Source: Sphingopyxis sp. (GTDB lineage: Bacteria > Pseudomonadota > Alphaproteobacteria > Sphingomonadales > Sphingomonadaceae). From it: 64,000 nt of DNA. The translations under genes and the position numbers were made by a program. This document shows, in pieces, positions 49,154 to 64,000 of this stretch. The notes under the pieces were generated by a model that searched no databases, was not told the DNA's origin, and saw only the letters and a list, made by a program, of their open reading frames with translations. The stretch lies in assembly GCA_040079655.1 (NCBI GenBank), contig JBEBJX010000001.1, positions 14,060 to 78,059 on the forward strand, in the 5' to 3' direction. Positions within the stretch are counted from its first letter, which is position 1. Each line of letters starts with the position of its first letter.

Positions 49154-49224
49154 GCAGGCCATAGAAAGTTAGGCGGACACGGCGGGGGTCGGAAACTATG
49201 ACGGATGCATGGCAAAGGGCGCGG

Positions 49225-50592
49225 ATGCGCATTAGCCTGTTTGGGGCGGCGGCGGCAATACTGCTGGCGGCGCTGGTCCTCGTCGCACCCGAAGCGCGCT
49301 CCAATGCTGCACAGGACGGCGCGCATCTTGGCGTTGCATCCTGTGCTGGATCAACCTGCCATGGCCGAATGCTGGGCGATGGGCCTGTGGTGCGACAGGA
49401 CGAGATCGCGCGATGGCAGGAGCCATCGACCCAAAGCGGTGCCCATTCGCGGGCCTATTCTGTGCTTTCCAATGCGCGTAGCCGCACCATCGCCCGCAAT
49501 CTGGGCATTGCCGACGCCGCCAGCTCCTCGACCTGCCTTGGTTGTCATTCGAGCGCCGCAGCAACCAGCGGCGGGGCATTTCGCTATCAATTGTCGGACG
49601 GCGTCAATTGCGAAAGCTGCCACGGCGCGTCATCTGGCTGGATTGCATCGCACTATGCCGGAACGTTGACTGGCGCGGCGCAGCATGATGATAATGTAAG
49701 GCGCGGGCTGCGGCGATTGGAAGACCCGGTGGTGCGCGCGGGGGTGTGCCTTGATTGCCATTTTGGCTCGGCAACGGACGGGCAATTTGTCACCCACCGC
49801 ATCATGGCGGCGGGGCACCCGCGCATCGCCTTTGAGCTCGATCTGTTTTCAACATTACAGATGCACCATGTTGAGGACGCCGACTATGCCCAGCGCAAAG
49901 GCAGTGTTGACCATGTGCGGATGTGGGCGGTGGGTCAGGCGATGGCGATCGAACGCTCTCTGTCGCTGTTTCAAAACGCCAATCGCGGCACCGATGGCGT
50001 GTTCCCCGAGTTTACTTTCTATGACTGCCATAGCTGTCATCGCCGGATATTCGACCAGGCACAGCCTAGCATAACCGCAGTCGGCAACCCAGCGCGGCCC
50101 ATTCCCCAAGGGATGCCGCCCTATAATGATGAAAATATGATCATGCTGTCGGCAGCGGCACGCGTGGCCGCACCCAGTTTGGCGACGCGTTTTGACGAAA
50201 AGGCGCGCGCTTTTCACGCGGCGATGACCCGCGACCGCGGGGCTGCGGTGGCGGCAGCACGCGAACTGATGGCAGCGGTGGGCGACGTGCGTAGCGCATT
50301 GGCGGGCACGAACTTTGGTGCCGGATCAGCACGCCAAATGGCCCAGGCGATTGCGGGAGAGGCGATCCGCGCCCGCTTCACCGATTATGAAGGGTCGGTG
50401 CAGGCGGTGATGGGGATTGATACATTATTGAATGCAATGATCAGCAACGGACAAGCGACAGTGGGATCGGCGGCGGGTATTCGTGGTGACATCAACCGCG
50501 CCTATGCGGCGGTGCGCGACCCCAATGCCTATCGCCCGCGTGATTTCCAATCCGCACTCGCCAGTGCCGTTCGCAGCATCGGTGCGCTGTGA
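49225..50592 (+). CDS. Periplasmic multiheme c-type cytochrome (cytochrome c554-like N-domain, 5 heme motifs)
   Basis: Signal peptide; CAGSTCH, CLGCH, CESCH, CLDCH, CHSCH; helical C-terminal domain; start 49198 or 49225. Confidence 0.85.
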   Translation: MRISLFGAAAAILLAALVLVAPEARSNAAQDGAHLGVASCAGSTCHGRMLGDGPVVRQDEIARWQEPSTQSGAHSRAYSVLSNARSRTIARNLGIADAASSSTCLGCHSSAAATSGGAFRYQLSDGVNCESCHGASSGWIASHYAGTLTGAAQHDDNVRRGLRRLEDPVVRAGVCLDCHFGSATDGQFVTHRIMAAGHPRIAFELDLFSTLQMHHVEDADYAQRKGSVDHVRMWAVGQAMAIERSLSLFQNANRGTDGVFPEFTFYDCHSCHRRIFDQAQPSITAVGNPARPIPQGMPPYNDENMIMLSAAARVAAPSLATRFDEKARAFHAAMTRDRGAAVAAARELMAAVGDVRSALAGTNFGAGSARQMAQAIAGEAIRARFTDYEGSVQAVMGIDTLLNAMISNGQATVGSAAGIRGDINRAYAAVRDPNAYRPRDFQSALASAVRSIGAL

Positions 50593-50682
50593 TGAAGCGA
50601 TGCCGCACAACCCAAAAGCGATTTGAAGTCAGATGGCACCGCCTGACGGCTCGCAAATCGCGGCAAGGCAAAGGAGTAGAGC

Positions 50683-52680
50683 ATGGTCTTTGATACAATC
50701 AAAGGACGTCATGCTCTAGGCTGGACAGCCTGTTTGGCAATGAGCCTGGCCGGATGCGGCAGCGGCGGCACTGGCGGCCCAGGCGGCGGATCGCCCTCGC
50801 CAACACCAACCCCAACACCGACCGGCATGGCCTTTGTGCTGCCCGCAGCCGAGGCGCTTAGCGTCTCCGATGTTGAGCGCATCATCGGCCAGGCGGTTAC
50901 CGAAGCCCAGGCGCGCGGGCAAAATGCGGTGATTGCGGTGGTTGATCGCCCCGGCAATGTGCTTGGCGTTTTCCGCATGACGGGCGCACCGCCAACCTCT
51001 GTGGTCGGCGCAGCGCCCAATGGCCAAAACCGCGATGCACAGGGCCAAACCATCCCATCCACCGCAGCAGCCATCGCCAAGGCGGTCACCGGCGCCTATC
51101 TGTCAAGCGGCGGCAATGCCTTTTCCACCCGCACCGCCAGCATGATTGTGCAACAGCATTTTCCGCCTGCGCCGGTCGCGGTGGGGCTTGAGAGCGGCCC
51201 GCTTTATGGTGTGCAATTCAGCTCGCTGCCCTGTTCTGACCTGTCGGCGCGCTATCGCGACGGCAACCTTGGGACGGGGCCGCTGATCGGGCCAAAGCGT
51301 TCGCCGCTTGGCCTGTCGGCGGATGCGGGCGGGCTGCCGCTCTATAAAAATGGCGTGCTGGTTGGCGGCATTGGCGTGATGTCCGATGGCGTCTATGGTT
51401 TTGACCCCGATGTCACCAATATCGACAATGACCCAGAGGAGTATAGCGCGCTGGCGGGAACACGCGGGTTCGAAGCACCCGTGGAAATCCGCGCCGACCG
51501 CATCCCCGTTGATGGCACGACATTGCGCTATTCGGATGCGCGCTATGACCAATTGACCACCAGCACCGCCCCCGCATTTGCAACGATTAACGGCACATTG
51601 GGGCAATTGATCGCAGTGCGCGGCTATTTTGGCGCTCCCGTCCCCGTTATCCAGGCGGGCGCGATTTACGGCACAGAAGCGTCGGGGCTGCGGCTCGCCA
51701 CGGCAGCAGAGTTTAGCCGCAGCGACGCGATGATCCTGAGCAATGGCGCGGGAACGGGGCGCTACCCGATACGCGGCGGCACCGATGCCGGCACCGTCGC
51801 CACACCGATGAGCGCCGCTGAAACGCGCGCGATATTGGAAGAGGCCTTTACCGTCATGGCGCGGGCGCGCGCGCAAATCCGCCGCCCATTGAACGCCCAG
51901 GCGCAGGTGACGATCAGTGTCGTTGACAGTTTCGGCGCGGTGTTGGGCATGGTGCGTTCGCCCGATGCGCCACTGTTTGGCATTGACGTCAGCCTGCAAA
52001 AGGCGCGCTCGGCAATGTTCCTGTCAAACAGCGTCGCCGCCGCCAATTTGCTGGCCGATCCTGACCCTGCGGTTCGTACCTATGTCGGCGCGGCGCGAAC
52101 CTTCCTCAATGACCCAGCCGCCCTCACCGGCACCGTCGCTTATTCCAATCGCGCGATCGGCCTGTTGCATCGCCCCTATTTTCCCGACGGCGAAGTCGGG
52201 CGCGCCAACGGCCCATTTTCCCGCGATATTGGCGGGTTTAACCCGCTATCGACCGGGCTGCAAAGCGCGATGACATTTCCCGACATCCTCAATCACCTGT
52301 TGTTTGTCCTCAATATCAACTCGGCTGATGTGAAACAGCGCTGCACCAACATTCCCGACAGCGCGCCCGGGCTTAATCGCTTGGCCAATGGCATGCAGAT
52401 TTTCCCCGGTGCGGTGCCCATTTATCGCGGAAATCAGCTGGTCGGCGGTATCGGCATATCGGGCGACGGCATCGACCAGGATGATATGGTGGCCTTCCTC
52501 GGCGTCGCCAATGCGTCCGCGCGGCTGGGCGGCAGCGTAACGCAAGCGCCGTTTGATCGCCGCGCTGATCGCTTGGTCGTTACGCTTCCCGATGCGCGGC
52601 AAGTGCGGCTGCGCTATGTCAATTGCCCGTTCACGCCGTTCCTCGATACCGACGCGCAAAATGTCTGTCAGGGCCTGTAA
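50683..52680 (+). CDS. Lipoprotein with tandem GlcG/HbpS (DUF336) heme-binding domains
   Basis: Lipobox LAGC plus PT linker; two copies of the pattern AVVD..G..L / KA..A / GG(L/V)P.Y..G.LVGGIG. Confidence 0.75.
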   Translation: MVFDTIKGRHALGWTACLAMSLAGCGSGGTGGPGGGSPSPTPTPTPTGMAFVLPAAEALSVSDVERIIGQAVTEAQARGQNAVIAVVDRPGNVLGVFRMTGAPPTSVVGAAPNGQNRDAQGQTIPSTAAAIAKAVTGAYLSSGGNAFSTRTASMIVQQHFPPAPVAVGLESGPLYGVQFSSLPCSDLSARYRDGNLGTGPLIGPKRSPLGLSADAGGLPLYKNGVLVGGIGVMSDGVYGFDPDVTNIDNDPEEYSALAGTRGFEAPVEIRADRIPVDGTTLRYSDARYDQLTTSTAPAFATINGTLGQLIAVRGYFGAPVPVIQAGAIYGTEASGLRLATAAEFSRSDAMILSNGAGTGRYPIRGGTDAGTVATPMSAAETRAILEEAFTVMARARAQIRRPLNAQAQVTISVVDSFGAVLGMVRSPDAPLFGIDVSLQKARSAMFLSNSVAAANLLADPDPAVRTYVGAARTFLNDPAALTGTVAYSNRAIGLLHRPYFPDGEVGRANGPFSRDIGGFNPLSTGLQSAMTFPDILNHLLFVLNINSADVKQRCTNIPDSAPGLNRLANGMQIFPGAVPIYRGNQLVGGIGISGDGIDQDDMVAFLGVANASARLGGSVTQAPFDRRADRLVVTLPDARQVRLRYVNCPFTPFLDTDAQNVCQGL

Positions 52681-52683
52681 CGG

Positions 52684-54633
52684 ATGAGCGTCACTTTCGC
52701 CTTTGCCCTGCCTTTGGTGGCTTCGGTGGTGCCCGCCACGACGACTGTCGAAACGGTGACGAACCCCGAAGAGAGCGAGAGCACGCCTGAGGCCGCGCCT
52801 GAAAACGCCGAGCAAGCCGAACCGTCGCCCCCGCCGCCGCCACCCGACTGGCAACGACGTATCGAGCCAACATTGTTGCAGGAAATCCTAGAAGGCCGCC
52901 GCCGCCCGGGCTATCAACCCGGCCTGCCAGAGGCGGTGACGCAGGAAAATGTCGGGGCAATCCGCGCCCTGCCGCCATCGGCATTTCCACAGGAGACATT
53001 GCCGATACCCGATCGCTGGCGGCTGATCACAGCGCTTTGCCCGGTGCAGAGCATCTTCACCGCGCTACAAAATGTCTGCCATTCCGCGCGCGACCCCTAT
53101 CATCAAAATCTGCTCAAGGGTGACAGACCCATCCCGCCCGAGGATTTCCCCAGCTTTTTGGGAATAGAGGGGCATGACTGGTTTTTAACCTTGTCGGCAA
53201 TTTCAGACACGGTGGTCGAGCCGCGCAGTTTCCCCATCCCGGTCGGCGTCCAAACGACAGAGCGGCCCGACAGCAACAATGTGTTCGGTCGCCCGACCAG
53301 CCTGGTCTTGTCACAAACATTCATTATGGGCGCGGCGCTGACCAAGGGGATGACCGCGTTCAAGCCACCCGATGTTGAATATCGCGTCGCGATTGCGTTC
53401 AACATGAATTATGTCGATGTGCCAGAGCGCCGCGTGCTGTTTGTCGAACCATCGCGTCCATCCCATCGGTTTGATTATTTTCTGGGCGTCCAGGAAGCCT
53501 TTATCGACAAGCATCTGGGCAATGATTCAGACCGCTATGATTTTCATTCGATCCGCGTCGGCATTCAGCCCTTTCAGACCGATTTTCGCGGCTTTCTGTT
53601 CAATGATAATCAGCTCGGTATCCGCCTGTTTGGCAACCGCGACAATAATCGCTTTCAATATAATCTGGCGGCATTTTGGCGGCTGGAAAAGGACACCAAT
53701 TCGGGCCTGAACGATGTCACCCAAACCCCGCGCAATGATTTTGTGCTCGCGGCCAATCTGTATCGTCAGGATTTGCCTATCCCCGGCCTGACCAGCCAAG
53801 TGACGCTTGTCTATAACCGCAACCGCGAAGGCGGCGACATCCATATCGACGACAATGGCTTTCCCATTCGCCCCGCGCTGTTCGGCACATTGCGCGGGCG
53901 CGATTATGATGTGTTTTACGCTGGTTACAACGCCGATGGTCATGTCGGCCGCATCAACCTGACAACCTCACTCTACGCGGCATTTGGCAAGGACCACAAC
54001 AACCCCATCACCGATCGGCCGGCGCGGATTGCCGGCTATTTCGCCGCCGCCGAAGCGAGTTATGACCATAATTGGATGCGCTTTCGCCTCTCGGCGCTCT
54101 ATGCCAGCGGCGACGGCAACCCCTATGACGATGTTGAGAGCGGGTTCGATGCCATTTCTGAAAACCCCCAGTTTGCGGGGGCCGATACCAGCTACTGGAT
54201 CCGCCAGGCTATCCCCTTTGCCGGCGGCGCGCGCGCGGTAACGGTCAATGGGCGTGGCGGGGTGTTAAACTCGCTGCGCTCATCCAAGGACGAAGGGCAA
54301 TCGAACTTCACCAACCCGGGAACGATATTGCTGGGGGTTGGCGGCGATTTCGACATCAGACCCGACACGCGCGTAACCGCCAACATCAACCATTTATGGT
54401 TCGAAAATACGCGGGTGATAGAGGTGCTGCGCAACCAAGGCGGCATTTCGCGCAACATTGGCTGGGACGTCTCGGTGTCGAGCATCTATCGCCCCAACAC
54501 CAACCAGAATATCGTGCTCAGACTGTCTGCCGCCGCGCTTATCCCCGGGCGCGGGTTCGACCAACTCTTTGCCAATAGCCCGCGTAGGGGGGCCTATTAT
54601 TCCATCCTCGCCAACGCAATATTGAGTTTTTGA
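52684..54633 (+). CDS. Predicted outer-membrane beta-barrel protein of unknown function
   Basis: Signal-like N-terminus, Pro/Glu-rich linker, many amphipathic aromatic-ended strands, C-terminal YYSILANAILSF ending in Phe. Confidence 0.6.
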   Translation: MSVTFAFALPLVASVVPATTTVETVTNPEESESTPEAAPENAEQAEPSPPPPPPDWQRRIEPTLLQEILEGRRRPGYQPGLPEAVTQENVGAIRALPPSAFPQETLPIPDRWRLITALCPVQSIFTALQNVCHSARDPYHQNLLKGDRPIPPEDFPSFLGIEGHDWFLTLSAISDTVVEPRSFPIPVGVQTTERPDSNNVFGRPTSLVLSQTFIMGAALTKGMTAFKPPDVEYRVAIAFNMNYVDVPERRVLFVEPSRPSHRFDYFLGVQEAFIDKHLGNDSDRYDFHSIRVGIQPFQTDFRGFLFNDNQLGIRLFGNRDNNRFQYNLAAFWRLEKDTNSGLNDVTQTPRNDFVLAANLYRQDLPIPGLTSQVTLVYNRNREGGDIHIDDNGFPIRPALFGTLRGRDYDVFYAGYNADGHVGRINLTTSLYAAFGKDHNNPITDRPARIAGYFAAAEASYDHNWMRFRLSALYASGDGNPYDDVESGFDAISENPQFAGADTSYWIRQAIPFAGGARAVTVNGRGGVLNSLRSSKDEGQSNFTNPGTILLGVGGDFDIRPDTRVTANINHLWFENTRVIEVLRNQGGISRNIGWDVSVSSIYRPNTNQNIVLRLSAAALIPGRGFDQLFANSPRRGAYYSILANAILSF

Positions 54634-57600
54634 TGGTGATGCAACGCCCCGCCTTTCTCCGTTTCGCTACGTTCATGCTGGCTCTGCTCACCATGCTCAG
54701 CGCGCTCGCCTTTCTCACGCCATCGGCCATCGCCAATGAGGGCGAGGTGCCCGTTGAGCGGCATTATGTCACCGCCCCAAATGCCCCCGCAAACCAGATA
54801 GGCGCAACATTCGAGGAACAGCGTAGCGCAGTGATGGCCAAATCCGAAGGGTGTTTCAGCTGCCATGTCCGCACCGACGAGCCATCGATGCACGCCAGCC
54901 CAGCGGTGCAGCTGGGCTGTGTCGATTGCCACGGCGGCGACGCAAGCGTTCGCGGTGACCCGGCGCTTGGCTATGCCCACCCCGACAATATGGCCGCACT
55001 AACCCGTGCCCATGTGCTGCCGCGTTACCCGCGCAGCTGGAACTGGCCTTCATCGGCCAACCCGCAGCGCAGCTACGCCCTGCTTAACCGCGAAGCACCT
55101 GAGTTCCTCCGCTTCGTCAACCCCGCTGATTATCGCGTTGCCCGCGAAGCATGCGGCGCGTGCCACCTCGCTATCATCGAAAATGCCGAGCGCTCGATCA
55201 TGTCAACCGGCGCGATGCTGTGGGGCGGGGCGGCCTATAACAATGGCATCGTCCCGTTCAAATCCTATTTGATGGGCGAAAGCTATACCCGCGAGGGCGA
55301 GCCAGCCTGCATCACCAGCCCATCGACCATATTGCCGCGCGAACAATGGGCCCGCGCCTGTGCCGACATCACCATGCCGGCGAGCGAAATATTGACGCCC
55401 GAAGAGCAAGCGCGCGGTGCACTGTCGCGCATGTACCCGCTGCCCAGCTGGACCGTGATCCCCCCGGGCGATGTGTTCCGCGTATTTGAACGCGGCGGAC
55501 GCAGCATCAACCCGGTGTTCCCAGAGATTGGCCTGCCCAATTCAACCGGGCAGATCCAGCGGCTTGACGAGCCTGGCCGCCCCGATCTGCGCCAGTCCAA
55601 TCGCGGGCCCGGCACTGGGCTTCGTGTTGCCATTCCGGTGCTCAACATCCACAAAACGCGGCTCAACGACCCGTTCATGTGGTTTATGGGCACTAATGAC
55701 CAACAAGGTGATTATCGTTCATCGGGATGTTCGGGTTGCCATGTTGTTTATGCCAATGACCGCGAGCCGCGCCACAGCAGCGTCTATGCCCAATATGGCC
55801 GCGACGGCCAGACAGCGACAGTTGACCCGACCATTTCCGGCCTGATGCAGCGCGCGCCTGTTCACGGGGAGAGTGGGCATGGCGAAGCGGGGCATGGTGA
55901 GAGCAGTAGCGGAGATGACGCACATGCCGAGGACGCACATGCCGAGAGCGGCCATGGCGGCCTGATTCCGGCTGGGTCACCGACACGCCGCGAGAGTGGC
56001 CACCCGATCCGCCACGCCTTCACCCGCGCCATCCCGACCGCGCAGTGCATGAACTGTCACATGCACCAGCCCAATGTATTCGTGAACACTTACCTTGGCT
56101 ATACGATGTGGGATTATGAAGCCGATGCGCCGCACATGTGGCCTGGCCCTGAAAATGAAGCGCCGCGCCCAGCCGGCATGAGCGACGAAGATTATAACCG
56201 CATCTATCGCAGCCAGCATTACCCGACCGCTACCGAGGTTCGCGCGATCAATGACCGCAATCCAGAGGGCGCGGCAACGCACGGCCTATGGGGCGATGTC
56301 GAGTTTCTGCGCGATGTGTACAGCCTCAACCCTGATCTCTCGGACACGCAATTTGCCGACTATCACGGCCATGGCTGGAATTTTCGCGCGGTGCTGCGCC
56401 GCGACCGCGAGGGCAATCTGCTTGATGCCGAGGGGCAAATCGTGCCGCCCGATGACCCCGAGCGCTGGCGCCGCAACGGCGAGGGCGAGTTTGCGCCGAT
56501 CGGCGTCAACCCTGGGCGCACCGTCCATTTGATGGACATCCACGCCGAAAAGGGAATGCAATGCGCCGATTGCCACTTCAGCCAAGACAGCCATGGCAAC
56601 GGGTTTATCTATGGCGAAGTTGCCAACGCGATCGAGATTGGTTGCAAGGATTGCCACGGCACTGCTGATGCCTACCCAACCCTGCTCACCTCCGGCCCTG
56701 CGGCACCGCCCGAAGGGACCAACCTCGCGCTGCTCCGCAATCCCGATGGCCAGCGGCGCTTTGAATGGGTCGATAACCCCGACGGCAGCCGCAAGCTTTT
56801 GCAGCGGTCGATCACCGACCCCGCTGTAACCTGGGAAGTCAGCCTAGTCCGCGACACGGTGACGCTCGGCAACCCGCGGTTCAACGCGCGCGCCGCGCGT
56901 GCCAAGCTTATGGGCCGTGTCAGCGAAGACGGGCAAACAAGCTGGGGCACCGGCGTCGCCTCCGATAATCGCGCCCATGGCGACGACCGCATGGCCTGTT
57001 TCACCTGCCATTTGTCATGGACCACCAGCTGCGGCGGCTGCCACTTGCCGATAGAAGCCAATTGGCTGACTAATGAGCATCATTTTGAAGGCGAAACGTC
57101 CCGTAATTTTGCGACCTATAACCCACAGGTCGCGCGCGACGAGATGTTCCAGCTGGGCATCCACCAAACCACCAAGGGCAATATCATCGCACCGGTACGC
57201 TCTTCATCGGCGCTGGTATTGTCTTCGACCAATATCAACCGCGAGCGTATCTATGTTCAGCAACCGCCGATCAGCGCGATCGGCTATTCGTCACAGGCCT
57301 TTGCGCCGCATTTCCCGCACACTGTGCGCACCACCGAAACCAAGACATGTAGCGACTGTCATTTGTCCGAAGACGAAGACAATAATGCCATCATGTCGCA
57401 GCTGCTGTTGCTCGGCACCAACTATGTCAATTTTGTCGGGCTCAACAATTTTGCGGGGCTGGAGGGCGGGTTCCAGGCGACGCGCGTCACCGAATGGGAT
57501 GAGCCACAGGCAGTCATCGGTAGTTATCTCCATCGCTATGCCTACCCCGATTTCTATCGCCTGCATGTCGACCAAAATGGCCGCGAGCTGCGCAATTGGG

Positions 57601-58832
57601 TGCGCGGTGCAATCCTTAACGATCATTTGTCGGGCGAGGGCGGCACCGAAGAGTTCCAAAATGTCGTGCAGGGCACCCGCGATCCGGTTTCCTGCCTGCA
57701 AATGCGCGGCGAATATATGTTCGTCGCCGAAGGACGCGGCGGCTTTGCGGTTTATGATATTGCGTCGGTCGCCAACAAGGGCTTTTCAGACCGCATCATT
57801 ACCGCGCCATTTTCTCCGCTCGGTCACGATCAACGCGTCGAAAGTCGCAACGCAACCTGCATGGCGCTCCCCACCAATCAGGCAATAGCGCCAACGCGCA
57901 GCACCGAAACATTGCGCACCATCAACCAGGAACAGCCGTTCCACCCTATCTATAATTATGCGGTGGTGACCGACGCCGAAGAGGGGTTGATCCTTGTCGA
58001 CGTCAATACATTTGCCGATGGCGAGCTGCGCAACAACAACTTGCGCCGCGCGCTCACCTGGAACCCCGATGGCGTGTTGAACGGCGCGCAGCACATCACG
58101 CTGGCGGGGTCGGTTGCCTATATTACCACTGCGCATGGGCTGGCGGTGGTTGATCTGGCCGATCCCATGAGCCCGCGCCTTACCGCCGACATTGCGATGG
58201 ATGGTGCCAAGGCGAGCACGATCCAGTTCCGCTATCTGTGGGTCAGCGACGCGAGCGGTATCAGGTTGTTCGACACCACCGATATGCGCGTTCCGGTGGC
58301 GGTGCCAAGCGGCGACATTGCGCTGCCGAGCGCGCAGCGCATGTATATCGCGCGCACCTACCTCTATGTTGCGGCGGGGGATCAGGGGCTGGTTATCATG
58401 AATGTGACGCGGCCACGCGCACCCGCTGAGCTGATGCGTTACACGGCGGGCGGCACGCTCAATGATGCGCGCGACGTGGTGGTCGCATCGACCAATGCCA
58501 GCCTGTTTGCCTATGTCGCCGATGGCCGCAACGGGGTGAAGATATTGCAACTGACCAGCCCCGCCAGTCAGCCCAATTTCTATGGCTTCAGCCCGCGCCC
58601 GGTGCCCGAACTCATTGCCTGGGCGCGCACGCCGACCCCGGCGGTTGCGATGTCCAAGGGGCTGGACCGTGACCGCGCGGTTGATGAAACCGGCGGGCAG
58701 ATTGCTGTGTTCGGGCGGCTTGGCTCGCGGCCATTTACACGGCCGGAGATGGAACGGCTGTTCCGCACGCCGGGTGGACTCTTATACAAGGTCAGCGACC
58801 GAACCGATATGGCGCGGTGGGCGGGGAACTAG
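54633..58832 (+). CDS. Large secreted decaheme c-type cytochrome with C-terminal LVIVD-repeat beta-propeller
   Basis: Signal peptide; ten CxxCH motifs (CFSCH, CVDCH, CGACH, CSGCH, CMNCH, CADCH, CKDCH, CFTCH, CGGCH, CSDCH); repeats such as GLILVDV, GLAVVDL, GIRLFD, GLVIMNV; TGATG coupling to the barrel gene. Confidence 0.85.
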   Translation: MVMQRPAFLRFATFMLALLTMLSALAFLTPSAIANEGEVPVERHYVTAPNAPANQIGATFEEQRSAVMAKSEGCFSCHVRTDEPSMHASPAVQLGCVDCHGGDASVRGDPALGYAHPDNMAALTRAHVLPRYPRSWNWPSSANPQRSYALLNREAPEFLRFVNPADYRVAREACGACHLAIIENAERSIMSTGAMLWGGAAYNNGIVPFKSYLMGESYTREGEPACITSPSTILPREQWARACADITMPASEILTPEEQARGALSRMYPLPSWTVIPPGDVFRVFERGGRSINPVFPEIGLPNSTGQIQRLDEPGRPDLRQSNRGPGTGLRVAIPVLNIHKTRLNDPFMWFMGTNDQQGDYRSSGCSGCHVVYANDREPRHSSVYAQYGRDGQTATVDPTISGLMQRAPVHGESGHGEAGHGESSSGDDAHAEDAHAESGHGGLIPAGSPTRRESGHPIRHAFTRAIPTAQCMNCHMHQPNVFVNTYLGYTMWDYEADAPHMWPGPENEAPRPAGMSDEDYNRIYRSQHYPTATEVRAINDRNPEGAATHGLWGDVEFLRDVYSLNPDLSDTQFADYHGHGWNFRAVLRRDREGNLLDAEGQIVPPDDPERWRRNGEGEFAPIGVNPGRTVHLMDIHAEKGMQCADCHFSQDSHGNGFIYGEVANAIEIGCKDCHGTADAYPTLLTSGPAAPPEGTNLALLRNPDGQRRFEWVDNPDGSRKLLQRSITDPAVTWEVSLVRDTVTLGNPRFNARAARAKLMGRVSEDGQTSWGTGVASDNRAHGDDRMACFTCHLSWTTSCGGCHLPIEANWLTNEHHFEGETSRNFATYNPQVARDEMFQLGIHQTTKGNIIAPVRSSSALVLSSTNINRERIYVQQPPISAIGYSSQAFAPHFPHTVRTTETKTCSDCHLSEDEDNNAIMSQLLLLGTNYVNFVGLNNFAGLEGGFQATRVTEWDEPQAVIGSYLHRYAYPDFYRLHVDQNGRELRNWVRGAILNDHLSGEGGTEEFQNVVQGTRDPVSCLQMRGEYMFVAEGRGGFAVYDIASVANKGFSDRIITAPFSPLGHDQRVESRNATCMALPTNQAIAPTRSTETLRTINQEQPFHPIYNYAVVTDAEEGLILVDVNTFADGELRNNNLRRALTWNPDGVLNGAQHITLAGSVAYITTAHGLAVVDLADPMSPRLTADIAMDGAKASTIQFRYLWVSDASGIRLFDTTDMRVPVAVPSGDIALPSAQRMYIARTYLYVAAGDQGLVIMNVTRPRAPAELMRYTAGGTLNDARDVVVASTNASLFAYVADGRNGVKILQLTSPASQPNFYGFSPRPVPELIAWARTPTPAVAMSKGLDRDRAVDETGGQIAVFGRLGSRPFTRPEMERLFRTPGGLLYKVSDRTDMARWAGN

Positions 58833-58955: not shown

Positions 58956-59417
58956 CTATGGCTCCACCGACTCTACGCTCACTGGAAAATTGACCGAGCG
59001 CGCGATGAAGCAAAGTCGATGCGCCTCATCATGCAGCGCGTCCGCCTCTGCGCGGCGCGCCTCGTCGCTGATCGTCACGGCAGGGTGCAGCGTCACGGAC
59101 ACAAATTGCCCGCCGCCATCCGCACCCTCGGTCATCACGCCGACAGGGTCGTCGGTGTATGCGGTGACGTTGATCCCCGCCACCGCCGCCAGGTGCAGAT
59201 ACCACAGCTGGTGACAGGCGCTGATTGACGCGACCAGCAATTCCTCGGGGTTCCACGCGCCTGCGTCTCCGCGAAAGGCGGGGTCGGATGACCCGGCGAT
59301 GGCGGGCTTGCCGCTCGCGGACAGAATATGCTCGCGGCCATAGGCGCGGTAGTCGGTGGTGCCGCCCCCATGATTGCCGGTCCATTCAAGGTGGAGTGTA
59401 TAATGATGGTCGCGCAT
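58956..59417 (-). CDS. OsmC/Ohr-family protein
   Basis: GSSDPAFRGD...WNPEELL.A..SACHQLWYL and C-terminal AH..CFIA.SVNFPV. Confidence 0.85.
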   Translation of the reverse strand: MRDHHYTLHLEWTGNHGGGTTDYRAYGREHILSASGKPAIAGSSDPAFRGDAGAWNPEELLVASISACHQLWYLHLAAVAGINVTAYTDDPVGVMTEGADGGGQFVSVTLHPAVTISDEARRAEADALHDEAHRLCFIARSVNFPVSVESVEP

Positions 59418-59448
59418 CGCGGCACTGTACACCGTGCCGCGCCGCTTA

Positions 59449-60309
59449 TCAAGCGCTGGAAACCCCCGGCCGCTCGCCAATCAGATGCTCGACCAGGTCG
59501 ATCATAGCGTGGTTATATTGCGCTAAAACAAGTCCTTGTGATGCGCTGTCAAAATGGCTGACCATTTGCGCGCCATTCCAGTGGTGGAGCGCATAGCCTG
59601 GGTCGTCGGCAATGATCATCGCGCGGTCGTCGGTCGCCCTCGTGTCAATCGGGCGCAGGTCGAGCGCGACCTGTGGCGAGGTCGATGAGCAAACGATTGC
59701 AGTCAATCCATGCCATTGCACGCTCATTGACCGATGCAAATGGCCGCAAATTAGCCCGCAAAGTTGCGGCGCATCGGCGATCGCCTCTGTGAAGCGCTGC
59801 ACCCATGGCTCGCTGGGGTCGGTGGTCATCCAGTCAATCCCGCTATCGAACGGCGGATGGTGCATGACAATATAGGTTGGAAGGTGAGGATGCTCGGCCA
59901 GCCGCGATTTCAGCCACGCGGCGCGCACTTCGCAAAAAGCGCCGCCGTGCCGCCCCTCTTCCAATGTGTCGATAACGATCAGGCGGAAATCTGCGAACAG
60001 CCGATCATATTGGATGAAGCCGCTGCGATCAGCGAAATCGGGGAAAACCTCGGTAAAGGCGGTGCGGACATCGTGATTGCCGACGCACGGAAACACGGGC
60101 CACGGATAAGCCGCAAAGGCATTGCGCAACCGCACATAGCTCGCCGTATCCCCCTGATCGGTCAAATCGCCCGTCGCCAACATCAGATCAGGCGCATTTG
60201 GGCCGACTGCCAGCCTTTCCAGCACCATGTCCAGCCGCTGCTGATTATATTCATCGGGATTCCCAGAATCAAAACCGATGTGAATATCGGTGATCTGGGC
60301 GATCAACAT
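59449..60309 (-). CDS. Metallophosphoesterase, CpdA/Icc-like cyclic-nucleotide phosphodiesterase
   Basis: QITDIH, TGDLTD, GNHD, MHHPP, GHLH calcineurin-like metal motifs; GAGAGG RBS. Confidence 0.85.
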   Translation of the reverse strand: MLIAQITDIHIGFDSGNPDEYNQQRLDMVLERLAVGPNAPDLMLATGDLTDQGDTASYVRLRNAFAAYPWPVFPCVGNHDVRTAFTEVFPDFADRSGFIQYDRLFADFRLIVIDTLEEGRHGGAFCEVRAAWLKSRLAEHPHLPTYIVMHHPPFDSGIDWMTTDPSEPWVQRFTEAIADAPQLCGLICGHLHRSMSVQWHGLTAIVCSSTSPQVALDLRPIDTRATDDRAMIIADDPGYALHHWNGAQMVSHFDSASQGLVLAQYNHAMIDLVEHLIGERPGVSSA

Positions 60310-60348: not shown

Positions 60349-62205
60349 CTACCGTTGCCTATCAGAGTCTGTGATGGAAATCACTCGGCCCGATTGCTCT
60401 CGGCCTGCGGGCCCTCGGCCTCCGCGCTGTCGACGGTCTGACGATTGCGGCGGTTGCCACGGGGCATCGGCCCGCTCACCTGCATGATATTCATGGCACG
60501 AAGCGCAAGGGCTTTCGACATCCGCGCCGGAATTTTCACCGCCATGACAATCGCGGCACACCTTGATTTCAGGAATCAGCAATTGATTGGCGGAGGATGA
60601 TCGCGCGGCCAGATGGCAGGTGCTGCATGGCTCATCATTATGCGGGCGATGATCGAACCAGCCATGCTCCAGATAGCGCGCGGTCTGGGTCACGGGCAGA
60701 ACGCGCCAATTGCTGTTTCCGGCGGCGGGCGCAAATATGGTGTGGCAATCATAACAAGCCCCACCGCGTGAAAATACGGCGCGCACCGCATCATTGGCGC
60801 GTGTCGGACGCACCGTGGTTTCGCGGAAATAGATGTTATAGATTTGCCCCTGGGCAAATTCACCCGGCCTGCGCCGCGCCATCCCGCCAAGGCTGATCGG
60901 CCGTGTTGGCGGGGTAGACCGATAATAGGCATAAAGGTCAGCCACCACCTGGGCCGGCTCACCATGGCGCAATGTCCGCGTCACCCCGCCCACGCTTTCG
61001 AACGACAGGCTGTGGCATCCCTGGCAATCGCGCTCCATATCAACGGGTTCAAAACGCACGCCATCCGCCGTTGGTCTATGGCAATTGGCACAATCCAGCC
61101 CCGACTGTTGGCCAGCGTTGAGGCGCAAATGTCGCGCCATGCGCGCCACCCCGCCCGCTTGTTGCAGATGCATATTATGCGGGAACTTCAGGCCGTTGAT
61201 GTCGGTTGTCTGTGGTGTGAGGGTGGTACGGACAAAACGTGGGGCCGCGCCCGGTGCCACTTGAACCCGTGGGCGAAACTGCGGGTGCGAAGTGCCAAAA
61301 TCACCCGCATCGCCGATCCGCGTATCGGTTAACCGGCTCGACATGCCGTTGTGACAATCGGCGCAAAATGCCTGAGCGGTGGCGGGCATCGGGCCTGCAC
61401 CCTCATGCTCATTATGACAATCAACGCATCGGCCCTGTGTCCGGTTGAACGCCGCACCAATGCGATTTAATACGCCGCGGAACATCCCCGGCTCGCCGCG
61501 CGCAGCCAATTGCCGATTGATCGGCGCATGGTCATGCGCATCATCATGGCAGCTTTTACATGCCTGATCGGTCACCGCGACAAAGGCATCTGTGTGGCAC
61601 GACTGGCAATCGCGAGCCAGCGCGGCGTGCACGCTGCTCAACGGCCCCGATGACCAGCTTTGGTCAGCATGAAAGGTTGCTGGGCGCTCCTCAATTCCGC
61701 GCCACTGCATATAGGCGAATATCGGCGCAATCAGGAAAGCGCCTATGACGAGCAGCGCAAAGGCCCAGGCCGAAAGCCGCCGCCCGGGCAATTTTCCTCG
61801 CAATGAAAATGCGCGCCCCTCATCACGATCAAGCGCCGAATGGCTGAGCTCATCTGTCCGTGTTACGGTCAATGTCACGCGGGAATCAGCGGTTTCGCTA
61901 TCCAGACCAACGGTGATACGATGCCCGCCAAAGCGCAGTTCAGCGCCATCACCAGCATCAATCGAGGCGCGGGTGACCGTGCGACCATCCCATTCAAATC
62001 CAAGGCCGGTTGTCGCCTGAACCTCGATATGGCGGCCGTCATTGGAGGTGATCGTGGCGTGATGAGGGATCACCGCCAGATCGGCGAGGTGGATGTCGCT
62101 CGACGCATCACGGCCGACCGCAATTTCACGCTGCACGAGCGGCGTCGAACGGATGATTTCGCGGCCAGCGCTGGTCACCGAAACCCGGCGGAGAAGGAAG
62201 CTCAT
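60349..62205 (-). CDS. FHA-like domain + TM helix + periplasmic decaheme cytochrome c
   Basis: N-terminal VGRDASSDIHL...HHA FHA-like pattern, one TM helix, ten CxxCH (CQSCH, CKSCH, CVDCH, CADCH, CANCH, CQGCH, CYDCH, CSTCH, CRDCH, CASCH); ATG 62205. Confidence 0.85.
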   Translation of the reverse strand: MSFLLRRVSVTSAGREIIRSTPLVQREIAVGRDASSDIHLADLAVIPHHATITSNDGRHIEVQATTGLGFEWDGRTVTRASIDAGDGAELRFGGHRITVGLDSETADSRVTLTVTRTDELSHSALDRDEGRAFSLRGKLPGRRLSAWAFALLVIGAFLIAPIFAYMQWRGIEERPATFHADQSWSSGPLSSVHAALARDCQSCHTDAFVAVTDQACKSCHDDAHDHAPINRQLAARGEPGMFRGVLNRIGAAFNRTQGRCVDCHNEHEGAGPMPATAQAFCADCHNGMSSRLTDTRIGDAGDFGTSHPQFRPRVQVAPGAAPRFVRTTLTPQTTDINGLKFPHNMHLQQAGGVARMARHLRLNAGQQSGLDCANCHRPTADGVRFEPVDMERDCQGCHSLSFESVGGVTRTLRHGEPAQVVADLYAYYRSTPPTRPISLGGMARRRPGEFAQGQIYNIYFRETTVRPTRANDAVRAVFSRGGACYDCHTIFAPAAGNSNWRVLPVTQTARYLEHGWFDHRPHNDEPCSTCHLAARSSSANQLLIPEIKVCRDCHGGENSGADVESPCASCHEYHAGERADAPWQPPQSSDRRQRGGRGPAGREQSGRVISITDSDRQR

Positions 62206-62216
62206 TTTACCCGCCC

Positions 62217-63101
62217 CTACCAGTAGAAAAAAACGCTGATGATGTGTGCCGTCAGCGCCGCGATCAACGCAAATGTCATCGGCACATGGGCGTAAAGCCA
62301 TATTTCGAGCAGCGACTTAAGCTTGAGATGTCGGCGCAACCGCCCCAATGCCGCAAGCTTGCGGGTCAATAAAATATCCACTTTTTCCATTGGGTCGTGG
62401 CCACTATCGTGCTGTGGCCCAGTCTGTGCGCGCACCAGCTCTAGCGCCCTCGCCGTGTCACACCGCCGCATCCGGCCCGTGAGGCGCGACCATAGCGAGC
62501 CGGCAAAAGGGTCCTGATCGAGCGACAGGCGGACAATCTGGGCATCGGCAGGGTCGAGCGGTTGCGCGGCCGCATGAAGTTGTCGATCAAGGCCGCGAAT
62601 ATCCTCGAGCATCTGTGCCTGGGTCCGCTCATCGCGATTGTTCGAGAGCAAGGCTGGCAAGCTGCTGTAAACGGTGATGCCCCAAATCCCCGACGCAATG
62701 ACCAGCATCATCAGGCTCCAGGCCAGCGTATGGACATTCCAGCCCAGTTGAAACCCCGTGTGCAATGTGCCGATGACGACAAGCGACAGCCCCAGATAGA
62801 CATGGGCCGATGTCCATGACTTTAACGACCATGCGCCGCGCGTCATCGCCCGTTTGCGCACACCGAGCAGCGTCAGCCACAGGATCAACAGCGCGCCGAT
62901 CGTTCCAAGCGTATAGCCATACCAACTGCCACCATTATGCCGCGGGGCAACATCGACCAGCCAGTAACTGACGAAGCAGATGAGGATGATGGCGACCGCA
63001 ATTTTGAGCCACAAGAAACCAGCATGCGAGAGAAAGCCCGTGTGCAGGCTCGATCGCTGGCGTTCGCCCTGTGCGGCGCGGCGTTTGAAACGACTAGCCA
63101 T
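62217..63101 (-). CDS. Inner-membrane protein, predicted di-heme cytochrome b (ferric-reductase-like)
   Basis: About 5 TM helices; His pairs H100/H114 and H272/H286, each 14 residues apart within a TM helix; TAATG coupling. Confidence 0.6.
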   Translation of the reverse strand: MASRFKRRAAQGERQRSSLHTGFLSHAGFLWLKIAVAIILICFVSYWLVDVAPRHNGGSWYGYTLGTIGALLILWLTLLGVRKRAMTRGAWSLKSWTSAHVYLGLSLVVIGTLHTGFQLGWNVHTLAWSLMMLVIASGIWGITVYSSLPALLSNNRDERTQAQMLEDIRGLDRQLHAAAQPLDPADAQIVRLSLDQDPFAGSLWSRLTGRMRRCDTARALELVRAQTGPQHDSGHDPMEKVDILLTRKLAALGRLRRHLKLKSLLEIWLYAHVPMTFALIAALTAHIISVFFYW

Positions 63102-64000
63102 TAATCGTCATCCTGCGTCAGGCGCGCGACGGACAAAAATGCCTCTGGCGAAACGCGGATGGCCGCCCCCGTCGGGCAGGCACGCACGCACGCTGGCCCG
63201 CCCGATATTCCAGAGCACATGTCGCATTTGATCGCCTTTTTCGGCGTTTCAACCCCCTTTGGCCCATGTGCTTTTGACCATTTTTTACTCGGCTCGCCAG
63301 GTCCAGGCCCAAGCCCGAGGAACAGCCAGGACAATAGGCCTGGTTTCTTTGGCGGCGCCGCGTCCATGCGAATGACGCCATAGGGGCAGTATCGCTGGCA
63401 ATTGCCACAGCCGATGCAGGTGTCGTCTATGAACACTTCGCCATCTGGGCCGCGGTGGATGGCATTGGGCGGACAGTCAGACATGCAATGCGGATGCTCA
63501 CAATGTCGACAAGAGGTTGGCACATGAATATGCGCGAAAGTTGCGCCGGCCTCACGATCGAGGCGCGATAATCCTTCATGGCTGTCGGCACAGGCTTTTT
63601 CGCAATTATCGCACGCCACGCACAATGTCTCGTCGATGAGCAACACATCGGTCGCTTCGCCAATCCCTTTGTCCACCAGGAATTTGGCGGTTTCAGAATA
63701 GAGCTCAACCGCACTGGAAAAGCTCGCTTTGCGCCCTTCGATAAAATTATTCAGGTCTTGGCGGGCGGCCATATCACCGCGCAAACGCGCCGCCAAATCG
63801 GGCTTGGTTGCCAATATTTTACGGAATGCGGCGCCCGACACCTTGACCACTTCGGATTTGACAGCAGCCTTGACCGTAGCCGTGCGCGCACCGCCGGCAA
63901 TAACCGCCATTTCCCCGACATAGGATCCCGCTGGCAGATAAGATAAAAACACCGGCTTGCCGCCAATCTGTTTTTCAACAACCATTGACCCCTGGCGAAC
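63101..64000 (-). CDS. Cyclic-nucleotide-binding domain fused to a DmsB/NrfC-type 4x[4Fe-4S] domain; 5' part lies beyond the window
   Basis: G.YVGEMA...GARTATVKA cNMP motif; CVACDNCEKAC, CRHCEHPHCMSDCP, CIGCGNCQRYCP, CDMC...PACVRACP; frame open to the window end. Confidence 0.85.
   Translation of the reverse strand, partial: VRQGSMVVEKQIGGKPVFLSYLPAGSYVGEMAVIAGGARTATVKAAVKSEVVKVSGAAFRKILATKPDLAARLRGDMAARQDLNNFIEGRKASFSSAVELYSETAKFLVDKGIGEATDVLLIDETLCVACDNCEKACADSHEGLSRLDREAGATFAHIHVPTSCRHCEHPHCMSDCPPNAIHRGPDGEVFIDDTCIGCGNCQRYCPYGVIRMDAAPPKKPGLLSWLFLGLGPGPGEPSKKWSKAHGPKGVETPKKAIKCDMCSGISGGPACVRACPTGAAIRVSPEAFLSVARLTQDDD

Follow-up and report, generated by a model that had tools for sequence, protein, structure and literature searches.

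A fused flavin, cyclic-nucleotide-binding and iron–sulfur protein of Sphingopyxis as a candidate switched electron-input subunit of a PtdE-type multiheme conduit

The window analysed here is a stretch of 64,000 nucleotides from Sphingopyxis sp., and its end (63101..64000, minus strand) encodes residues 518-816 and the stop codon of a protein that joins a flavin domain, two cyclic-nucleotide-binding (CNB) domains and an iron–sulfur module, as assigned from the ORF listing, Pfam and an identical database protein (P0002, 814 aa). The minus strand carries the longest frame over these positions, which hold the last 299 residues of an 816-aa ORF and leave its 5' end open at the window edge. The plus-strand ORFs over the same positions (74-122 aa) were taken as shadow frames of a GC-rich gene, because the minus-strand frame is conserved across phyla. 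Recovery of the full gene, which an earlier note on the window had named as a check, gave an intact ORF on the same contig past the window end (G000:C1:77160-79610, equivalent to window 63101-65551), and together with the identical 814-aa record this rules out a gene broken or truncated at the edge. The protein has 816 aa with a TTG start and 814 aa with the GTG start of P0002. Its part outside the window (G000:C1:78060-79610) encodes a YpdA-fold FAD/NAD(P)H domain (residues 8-307), CNB-A (about 356-470) and the start of CNB-B. Pfam searches of the full protein gave the order Pyr_redox_3/Pyr_redox_2 (residues 8-307), two cNMP_binding domains and Fer4_11/Fer4_7 (residues 638-800), and no NCBIfam model reached its own cut-off. 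The AlphaFold2 model had a mean pLDDT of 82.4 and a pTM of 0.69, and a fold search with it matched single domains only (best query TM-score 0.36).

The C-terminal two thirds of CNB-B (residues 518-600) lie at 63752..64000 on the minus strand, where Pfam cNMP_binding (499-582) is cut by the window edge and still gave an E value of 1.7e-8. On the full protein, PF00027 matched two stretches with 110.7 bits against a gathering score of 27.5 (total E 3.4e-32). The earlier note had described an intact GE...RTA phosphate-binding cassette; we located it as GEMAVIAGGARTAT at 63875..63916 (minus strand, from the translation), with the Gly, Glu, Arg and Thr present, and found a second canonical cassette upstream, so that the pattern Gly-Glu...Arg-x-Ala-Thr/Ser occurs in both CNB domains (GEVGLVSGRRRGAT and GEMAVIAGGARTAT). 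The tandem aligned as one unit to residues 157-364 of the PKA regulatory subunit RI-beta (E 2.7e-23), cassette on cassette and CNB-B on CNB-B, with GEMAVIAGGARTAT on FGEIALLLNRPRAAT. In 135 relatives with 46-89% identity to the query, both cassettes were canonical in 134; G544, E545 and R554 of CNB-B were invariant and A556 and T557 nearly so, whereas the CNB domains as a whole were only 40-47% identical. In the 814-aa numbering the cassette arginines are R429 (CNB-A) and R554 (CNB-B). By every readable residue, CNB-B is predicted to be ligand-competent. The RTAT motif of CNB-B and the RGAT motif of CNB-A are found in both cAMP and cGMP receptors.

Among 41 more divergent family representatives (at most 50% mutual identity, 28-64% identity to the query), both cassettes were canonical in 11 and neither in 16. 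These 16 have lost the Arg/Thr contacts and retain the CNB fold, all Fe–S cysteines and both Rossmann motifs, which indicates that the CNB pair also has a ligand-independent, structural role in the family; gating by a cyclic nucleotide may be neither its ancestral nor its general function. The PKA regulatory subunit (RI-beta, 4din_B) likewise has two consecutive CNB domains with both cassettes intact, but it has a kinase-inhibitor output and a dimerisation/docking domain, and the Sphingopyxis protein has neither, its tandem being set between two redox domains. A CRP/FNR-like transcription factor was rejected, since no HTH family was among the Pfam matches and the CRP model covered the CNB parts only.

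The earlier note had also placed the cNMP domain in a direct fusion with a respiratory-type 4x[4Fe-4S] module. The fusion within one protein holds, but it is not immediate, as a helical linker of about 34 residues (63650..63751, minus strand; AlphaFold2 helices 582-604 and 610-625 in P0002 numbering, and translation) stands between CNB-B and the Fe–S module. The module itself, a four-cluster ferredoxin of the HycB/DmsB/NrfC type, lies at 63152..63649 (minus strand), with Fer4_11, Fer4_7 and Fer4_9 above cut-off. Its cysteine groups, read from the translation of the minus strand, are CVACDNCEKAC (group I, 63590..63622), CRHCEHPHCMSDC(P) (group II, 63473..63511), CIGCGNCQRYC(P) (group III, 63386..63418) and CDMCSGISGGPACVRAC(P) (group IV, 63176..63226). 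These 16 cysteines follow the order CX2CX2CX3C / CX2CX4CX3CP / CX2CX2CX3CP / CX2CXnCX3CP of four-cluster ferredoxins, and all of them were invariant in 41 of the 41 representatives. Formate hydrogenlyase subunit 2 (7z0s_B) was the best solved relative (E 8.8e-20, residues 637-800). The same four groups, order and fold family are met in HycB (7z0s_B), HydN, DmsB, NrfC (2vpw_B) and ArrB (6cz7_B), which are free or Tat-exported subunits, whereas the module studied here forms one part of a larger cytoplasmic protein. Unlike HycB/DmsB-type subunits, the module has about 44 additional residues inserted between groups III and IV (63236..63367, minus strand). This insertion contains the conserved hydrophobic helix KPGLLSWLFLGLGPGPGE (predicted helix 737-743), shows little or no variation at L737, W740, G744, G746, P749 and G750 (alignment A2), and may be a docking or membrane-contact element. 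The four groups follow the DmsB/HycB order, and the term respiratory-type is a statement of fold only. The equivalog scores (42-55 bits) stayed below the cut-offs for DmsB (214), NrfC (378), HydN (260) and ArrB (450), and Pfam searches of the neighbouring genes found no catalytic molybdopterin, hydrogenase or NrfA subunit in the cluster, so a true DmsB/NrfC/HydN respiratory reductase subunit was rejected.

A suggestion of the earlier note was that the N-terminus beyond the window may hold an NAD(P)H/flavin input, and the full protein agrees with it. The N-terminal domain matched Pyr_redox_3 (E 2.1e-28) and Pyr_redox_2 (E 2.7e-26), both GxGxxG Rossmann motifs are present and invariant (G11/G13/G16 and G161/G163/D164), and a fold search of the AlphaFold2 model placed it near YpdA/Bdr (TM-score 0.88) and thioredoxin-reductase (TrxR)-type ferredoxin-NADP+ reductases (FNRs). 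The full protein sequence contains no CxxC outside the Fe–S module, where the sole other cysteines are at 243, 262 and 303. The position of the proposed catalytic cysteine of YpdA is occupied by alanine (GSGPAG here, GGGPCG in 7a7b and 7a76). We therefore rejected both a bacillithiol disulfide reductase of the YpdA/Bdr kind (130.4 bits with TIGR04018, cut-off 339.9; YpdA Cys replaced by Ala) and a thioredoxin reductase (no redox-active CxxC; TIGR01292, 47.5 bits against 343). The domain shares the two-Rossmann FAD/NAD(P)H fold with YpdA/Bdr (7a7b), which has Cys14 where the query has Ala, and with the TrxR-type FNRs (3ab1, 3lzw, 5ygq), which likewise have no CxxC disulfide. Whereas the electron partner of YpdA and the FNRs is a thiol or a free ferredoxin, the predicted Fe–S partner of this flavin domain is the fused module and not a separate protein.

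The next gene (62217..63101, minus strand) encodes a 294-aa inner-membrane protein with two histidine pairs (H100-x13-H114 and H272-x13-H286), a weak Ni_hydr_CYTB match and no match in NCBIfam, and its ATG overlaps the TAA of the flavo-CNB-FeS gene (TAATG). At almost every locus examined, the flavo-CNB-FeS gene is followed by this one, and in one database protein (P0129) both form one natural ORF. It is followed on the minus strand by an FHA-domain decaheme cytochrome c with a single transmembrane segment (60349..62301; Pfam FHA, Cytochrome_C7, Cytochrom_c3_2 and Paired_CXXCH_1, and synteny), a class III (Metallophos) cyclic-nucleotide phosphodiesterase-like gene (59449..60309; Pfam Metallophos, 6.1e-16) and, as the last gene of the operon, an OsmC-like protein (58956..59480; Pfam OsmC, 1.7e-15). 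The phosphodiesterase-like gene scored below threshold with the NCBIfam models of both SpdA (123.7 bits, cut-off 400) and CpdA (79.4 bits, cut-off 225), and among the loci compared it occupied the corresponding position only in Sphingomonadaceae-type copies and Rhizomicrobium. We counted its presence in the operon as support for signalling, and its sub-cut-off scores and limited distribution as points against. A convergent partner operon (49198..58832, plus strand, Pfam) encodes a pentaheme cytochrome, a double HbpS-like lipoprotein, a beta-barrel and a 1400-aa decaheme/LVIVD-propeller protein. In most other lineages the partner-operon genes lie directly downstream of the FHA-decaheme gene in a single operon. 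The order flavo-CNB-FeS, membrane protein, FHA-decaheme, usually followed by HbpS-like lipoprotein, barrel and decaheme-propeller, recurred in 12 of 14 contig loci and in 15 of 17 carriers sampled evenly from the Alphaproteobacteria, and the lineages sharing it belong to the Alphaproteobacteria, Gammaproteobacteria and Acidobacteriota; on the two exceptional contigs of the 14, no membrane-protein homolog was detected or the contig ended too early. A second cluster in the same genome has a permuted YpdA-fold flavoprotein with 2x[4Fe-4S] and a membrane-protein homolog, and has no CNB domains.

Judged from these domains and neighbours, the protein is a fused variant of PtdE, a protein of the ptdABCDEFG cluster (bioRxiv 10.1101/2023.11.21.568154) and the Fe–S gene of 'PCC4 subgroup II' (He et al. 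2017, PMC5566968). PtdE likewise has cNMP-binding domains N-terminal to a multi-[4Fe-4S] module and likewise lies directly upstream of a five-helix membrane protein with two HX13H motifs (PtdF) and a decaheme cytochrome (PtdG), to which the membrane protein and FHA-decaheme of the window correspond. The PtdE of genome G182 (L085, 573 aa) showed 30% identity to the query over residues 417-800 (E 6.4e-38), and its cluster is canonical, with genes of 5, 4 and 10 CxxCH motifs in ptd order. The preprint gives 'two 4Fe-4S clusters' for PtdE (bioRxiv 10.1101/2023.11.21.568154); by motif count there are four in both the query and canonical PtdE. Canonical PtdE has three Pfam cNMP matches and no flavin domain, and in one such protein the first CNB domain alone has a canonical cassette, whereas the query has two CNB domains and the YpdA-fold N-terminus. 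Canonical ptd clusters also have PtdC and the tetraheme PtdD, but no separate FNR-type + 2Fe-2S PtdC and no tetraheme PtdD were found among the cluster genes of the window, which in turn differ from ptd in the double HbpS-like lipoprotein, the 1400-aa decaheme-propeller, the FHA domain on the decaheme and the lineage-specific phosphodiesterase. Because PtdC and PtdD are missing and the flavin module is fused and of another fold, we regard the protein as a variant and not as canonical PtdE. In G182 the separate NAD(P)H module PtdC (FAD_binding_6, NAD_binding_1 and 2Fe-2S) is unrelated to the query flavin domain, so that different flavoproteins have been recruited to one Fe–S/membrane-protein/decaheme core. 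A literature search returned only three descriptions at the genome or transcriptome level and no experimental paper on any family member.

From the observed domain content, cofactor-ligand motifs, conservation and gene neighbourhood, we infer the direction of electron flow, the complex with the membrane protein and, the most inferential of all, the gating and the identity of the nucleotide. The reading that we favour, with a probability of roughly 0.55, is that the gene product is the cytoplasmic electron-input subunit of an inner-membrane-crossing conduit that carries electrons from NAD(P)H to the envelope under a cyclic-nucleotide switch. NAD(P)H would reduce the FAD of the N-terminal YpdA/TrxR-fold domain, which would act like a TrxR-type ferredoxin:NAD(P) reductase because it has no redox-active cysteine. 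The electrons would then pass to the four [4Fe-4S] clusters of the C-terminal HycB/DmsB-like module, from there to the two b hemes predicted for the five-helix membrane protein, whose gene is translationally coupled, and on through the membrane-anchored periplasmic decaheme cytochrome to the barrel and decaheme-propeller proteins of the outer envelope. The PtdC of G182, as a separate NAD(P)H module at the same core, lends independent support to the NAD(P)H input. A cyclic nucleotide on the PKA-R-like tandem would reposition the flavin and Fe–S domains and so turn the transfer on or off, and the phosphodiesterase of the operon itself would end the signal. The narrower proposal that the nucleotide binds the CNB tandem and directly opens or closes FAD-to-Fe–S transfer is more tentative, and we place it somewhat short of even odds.

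The NOX/FRE flavocytochromes offer a working analogy, in which a cytoplasmic NAD(P)H-flavin unit feeds a two-HX13H heme-b membrane domain and electrons move outward. They differ in flavin fold and in acceptor, which is O2 or Fe(III) in NOX/FRE and a multiheme cytochrome here; moreover, the flavin of the query resides on a polypeptide separate from the membrane protein, with four Fe–S clusters and two CNB domains interposed, and the likeness is one of motifs. A motif likeness of the membrane protein to the FRD domain has been reported (PMC5566968).

The CNB tandem could instead be mainly a structural spacer or docking scaffold, which holds the flavin and Fe–S domains or binds the FHA domain or the membrane protein, and electrons would then flow without cyclic-nucleotide control; the canonical cassettes of the query clade might bind a nucleotide constitutively as a structural ligand, or none. 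This is consistent with the 16 of 41 divergent representatives in which neither cassette retains the Arg/Thr contacts but the fold, Fe–S cysteines and Rossmann motifs persist, with the single canonical cassette of a canonical PtdE and with the lack of a phosphodiesterase in the clusters of most lineages. Against it, the 135 relatives show little or no variation at the G, E, R and (A)T positions of either cassette, although their CNB domains are otherwise only 40-47% identical; such a pattern would scarcely be expected unless ligand contact were under selection. In addition, a phosphodiesterase-like gene is co-operonic in the query lineage. We consider a mainly structural tandem unlikely. With two canonical cassettes in 134 of the 135 relatives but degenerate ones in about 40% of the farthest representatives, it is plausible, for the query clade, that a cyclic nucleotide gates electron flow.

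The direction of flow and the nature of the ligand might also differ from our favoured reading. Electrons could move inward: a donor in the periplasm or outside the cell, for example Fe(II) or Mn(II), would feed them through the flavo-FeS protein to NAD(P)+ or another cytoplasmic acceptor, and the CNB domains would tune uptake. This we consider very improbable. On general bioenergetic grounds, reducing the NAD(P) couple with electrons from c-type cytochromes would be strongly endergonic, and electrons moving inward would do so against the membrane potential. The absence of an energy-coupling subunit from the cluster and the mostly aerobic heterotroph lineages of the carriers also speak against it. 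Related PCC4 clusters were first met in genomes of Fe(II) oxidisers and modelled as inward conduits (PMC5566968), with flow from outside to quinone proposed for related clusters (PMC5566968; 10.64898/2026.01.22.701106), and a homologous cluster of Ferrigenium is expressed during Fe(II) oxidation, yet its expression under all conditions (10.64898/2026.01.22.701106) is not specific to Fe(II). As for the ligand, the operon phosphodiesterase lies closer to SpdA, a 2',3'-cNMP phosphodiesterase, than to CpdA (123.7 against 79.4 bits), and an OsmC-like stress protein closes the operon. 2',3'-cyclic nucleotides are products of RNA turnover, and a conduit that senses these or another nucleotide in place of 3',5'-cAMP/cGMP would answer to stress or RNA decay. 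We give this little chance, because both scores are far under the curated cut-offs, the cassettes agree at each residue with those of 3',5'-cNMP receptors, and every sampled carrier genome has a class III cyclase.

Class III cyclase matches are present in the query genome, and in a 301-genome sample of the class a cyclase was found in 18 of 18 carriers against 196 of 301 genomes overall, a co-occurrence that carries little weight, since the carriers are related to one another and their genomes are larger. A family profile search found more than 4,700 database proteins at E <= 1e-50, and about 6% of the sampled Alphaproteobacteria genomes have a full-length copy. The carriers found belong mostly to aerobic heterotroph lineages, such as Sphingomonadaceae, Nisaea, Zavarzinia, Lysobacter and Steroidobacteraceae. 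The family heads a predicted envelope-spanning multiheme system in ordinary oxygen-respiring bacteria of soil and water. The protein offers a tractable entry to the function of the whole ptd/PCC4-like system: it is soluble, its cofactors can be predicted, and the regulatory hypothesis calls only for binding and reductase assays. Characterised cyclic-nucleotide receptors control transcription, phosphorylation, ion flux, acetylation or a defence effector, and we know of none shown to control an electron-transfer chain directly. A fast switch would make physiological sense, because an outward NAD(P)H-driven wire costs reductant and membrane potential. If the narrower proposal of direct gating is true, a second messenger would switch an electrogenic outlet from NAD(P)H to the envelope at the protein level and within seconds in common aerobic bacteria, and this would be the first second-messenger-gated electron-transport wire.

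In window positions 63101-64000, the ORF listing showed that the longest frame lies on the minus strand and is open past the window end. The window corresponds to G000:C1:14060-78059, a contig of the organism's own genome, and on the same contig the frame extends to an intact ORF (C1:77160-79610), so that the full gene, which the earlier note had proposed to obtain, could be read. It encodes 816 aa from a TTG codon or 814 aa from an in-frame GTG, the latter being the start used by the identical database protein P0002. Translation of the exact minus-strand coordinates placed the phosphate-binding cassette GEMAVIAGGARTAT at 63875-63916 and, at 63650-63751, a linker some 34 residues long. The same strand encodes four Cys groups: group I (CX2CX2CX3C) at 63590-63622, group II (CX2CX4CX3CP) at 63473-63511, group III (CX2CX2CX3CP) at 63386-63418 and group IV (CX2CX8CX3CP) at 63176-63226, in the order of four-cluster ferredoxins. 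The pattern is not due to chance, because the Pfam scores exceed the cut-off and all 16 Fe-S cysteines are invariant in 41 representatives that are just 28-64% identical to the query. These results confirm the first observation, of a cNMP-binding cassette followed by four Cys groups in that order, by translation, Pfam and conservation; the two parts are not joined immediately, as had been claimed, but through the linker.

Pfam analysis of the full protein found Pyr_redox_3 / Pyr_redox_2 at residues 8-307, two cNMP_binding domains (CNB domains), and Fer4_11 / Fer4_7 at residues 638-800. Both Rossmann motifs (GSGPAG and GGGDAG) are present in the flavin domain, so the suggestion that the missing N-terminus holds an NAD(P)H/flavin input is upheld at the level of sequence. 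Among solved structures, YpdA/Bdr comes closest to this domain by both sequence and fold (TM-score 0.88), and TrxR-type ferredoxin-NADP+ reductases rank next. No CxxC was found in the flavin domain, and cysteines outside the Fe-S module occur in the full protein only at 243, 262 and 303; the cysteine of the YpdA GGGPCG motif is replaced by alanine, and the YpdA model scored 130 bits against a cut-off of 340. On these features the domain is a YpdA-fold flavoprotein lacking thiol chemistry, which fits simple electron transfer from NAD(P)H to Fe-S. The top solved relative of the Fe-S module was HycB (formate hydrogenlyase subunit 2, E 8.8e-20). An AlphaFold2 model built from a 135-sequence alignment had a mean pLDDT of 82.4 and a pTM of 0.69, and the fold search returned no solved chain resembling more than one domain at once (top query TM-score 0.36). 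A CRP-type regulator was ruled out, because no HTH domain was among the Pfam matches.

The flavo-CNB-FeS gene ends in a TAATG overlap between its stop codon and the ATG of the next gene, which encodes a 294-aa membrane protein with the His pairs H100/H114 and H272/H286 in hydrophobic segments. Further downstream are genes for an FHA/single-TM/decaheme cytochrome, a Metallophos phosphodiesterase-like protein and an OsmC-like protein. The convergent operon on the plus strand comprises genes for a pentaheme cytochrome, a double HbpS-like lipoprotein, a barrel and a 1400-aa decaheme-propeller. On its upstream side, the flavo-CNB-FeS gene is preceded by an unrelated gene for an arginyl/leucyl-tRNA protein transferase. 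The order flavo-CNB-FeS, membrane protein, FHA-decaheme, then usually HbpS-like lipoprotein, barrel and decaheme-propeller recurred in 12 of 14 loci from genome contigs and in 15 of the 17 Alphaproteobacteria in the even genome sample that carry a full-length homolog. It was found in Stellaceae, Rubrimonas, Rhizomicrobium, Lysobacter, Chromatiales, Steroidobacteraceae, Wenzhouxiangella, Ca. Sulfotelmatobacter and Thermoanaerobaculia. In Nisaea acidiphila (L088 1-9834), the cluster is directly preceded by a type II secretion set (PilN, T2SSM, XpsN, GspD secretin and prepilin peptidase), a point of interest because type II secretion exports some surface multiheme cytochromes.

This arrangement resembles the 'PCC4' clusters described by He et al. 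2017 (PMC5566968), in whose subgroup II an Fe-S (pfam13247) gene lies upstream of a conserved five-helix inner-membrane protein with two HX13H motifs. The gene set was named ptdABCDEFG in a 2024 preprint, which calls its function 'completely unknown' (10.1101/2023.11.21.568154), and a homologous trio with an FHA-nonaheme cytochrome was expressed in all conditions tested in Ferrigenium (2026 preprint, 10.64898/2026.01.22.701106). We found a canonical ptd cluster in another genome (G182), with 5-, 4- and 10-heme genes in ptd order. Its PtdE (L085 9325-11043; 573 aa) shares 30% identity with the window protein over residues 417-800 of the latter and keeps the canonical cassette only in the first CNB domain; by motif count it has four Cys groups with 16 Cys, whereas the ptd preprint gives 'two 4Fe-4S clusters' (10.1101/2023.11.21.568154). 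In G182 the separate PtdC, of FNR type, combines FAD_binding_6 and NAD_binding_1 with a 2Fe-2S domain; the window protein instead has an unrelated NAD(P)H flavoprotein fused to it. Judged from this homology, the window protein is a fused variant of PtdE, itself described by bioinformatics. Two different flavoproteins thus seem to serve the same Fe-S/membrane-protein/decaheme core, which is good comparative evidence for NAD(P)(H) as the probable cytoplasmic redox partner.

A single-sequence search gave more than 6,500 matches, the best 120 of which have 739-837 aa (nearly all 800-837), are mostly from Sphingomonadaceae and, where named, bear domain-level or automatic names such as 'cyclic nucleotide-binding domain-containing protein'. 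At E ≤ 1e-50 the profile search retrieved 4,712 proteins, which come from Rhodospirillales-type Alphaproteobacteria, Rhodobacteraceae, Xanthomonadales and others. When the 50%-identity representatives were searched exhaustively, dozens of full-length clusters emerged together with shorter CNB-FeS forms. A full-length homolog with at least 50% identity was present in 17 of 300 genomes evenly sampled from the same class. In P0129, a metagenomic representative of 1110 aa, the flavo-CNB-FeS and membrane proteins form one ORF, either a natural fusion or a merged gene call; this supports a putative physical complex of the two and a cytoplasmic N-terminus of the membrane protein. He et al. 2017 pointed out a similar single annotation in Oceanospirillum beijerinckii (PMC5566968). 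P0272 (1458 aa), in which a flavin and two-CNB unit lacking the Fe-S module precedes a complete flavo-CNB-FeS copy, is an apparent partial tandem duplication. Locus L086 (G155:C3:462294-462982) is a gene remnant: its middle part is deleted, residues 1-78 and 686-806 persist in two short neighbouring frames, and no ORF among those screened nearby reached three CxxCH motifs.

Outside the window, the own genome carries a second, PCC3-like cluster (C28:17528-24000). One of its products, of 444 aa, combines a TM helix and 2x[4Fe-4S] with a circularly permuted YpdA-fold flavoprotein. The cluster further includes a gene homologous to that of the window's membrane protein, a 24-heme cytochrome gene (646-aa ORF, 24 CxxCH motifs) and another ORF with at least 11 such motifs; no CNB domain was found in it. 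Proteins (440-490 aa) that contain this permuted flavoprotein also adjoin membrane-protein homologs at eight other loci (L018, L020, L021, L022, L028, L029, L030 and L048), from Hyphomicrobium, Gemmatimonadota, Acidobacteria, Neomarinimicrobiota, Eisenbacteria, Nitrospirae and Holophagae. The flavoprotein and the two-His-pair membrane protein thus form a recurrent module, and their pairing in the absence of CNB domains indicates that the CNB pair is an add-on restricted to ptd-like systems.

The two CNB domains align as a single unit to PKA RI-beta residues 157-364, cassette against cassette (FGEVGLVSGRRRGAT with FGELALIYGTPRAAT; VGEMAVIAGGARTAT with FGEIALLLNRPRAAT). Among 135 relatives (46-89% identity), G419, E420, R429, G544, E545 and R554 (814-aa numbering) do not vary, and A431, T432, A556 and T557 hardly do; two canonical cassettes occur in 134 of the 135, and over this set the CNB domains as a whole are just 40-47% identical to the query. 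Across 41 representatives sharing at most 50% mutual identity, both cassettes are canonical in only 11 and neither in 16, and an alignment-free motif scan agreed on the loss for at least 13 of these 16. These 16 proteins retain the CNB fold, the Rossmann motifs and every Fe-S cysteine, which argues that the CNB pair must have a connecting, structural role as well. Cyclic-nucleotide sensing is therefore best claimed as a predicted role of the large clade including the window protein, not as a general one.

The gene content also speaks for nucleotide binding by these domains. Class III cyclase matches are present in the own genome; the only ones (C177:22-456 and C181:645-1079) lie on contigs of about 1.1-1.2 kb, too short for their context and full domain make-up to be read. 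A cyclase was present in 18/18 carriers of the class sample versus 196/301 genomes overall, which is weak evidence because the carriers are kin and have larger genomes. In the window lineage the operon itself contains the class III phosphodiesterase-like gene (59449-60309), which scored higher with the SpdA (2',3'-cNMP) model (123.7 bits) than with CpdA (79.4 bits), both far below their cut-offs. Its position after the decaheme gene is confined, among the loci compared, to the window, one same-family genome, Sphingomonas sp. C3-2 and Rhizomicrobium; in Nisaea, for example, the cluster lacks it.

We propose that electrons would pass from NAD(P)H to FAD and the four [4Fe-4S] clusters, next to the pair of b hemes in the membrane protein and finally through the periplasmic decaheme to the outer proteins; the PKA-R-like tandem, placed between flavin and Fe-S domains, would be a hinge operated by its ligand. 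Flow is probably outward, since this direction is downhill in redox potential and along the membrane potential. Transfer inward to NAD(P)+ is disfavoured, being uphill on both counts in a cluster with no coupling subunit. New findings are that cassette conservation depends on the clade, that a fused YpdA-fold domain has displaced PtdC, that the own genome has a paralogous module lacking CNB domains, and that the phosphodiesterase is narrowly distributed. The initial interpretation, of a flavin input and of electron flow gated by a cyclic nucleotide, is partly supported: the sequence itself shows the flavin input, and gating is so far a plausible proposal. An outward wire would use up reductant and depolarise the membrane, which would give the cell a reason for a fast switch.
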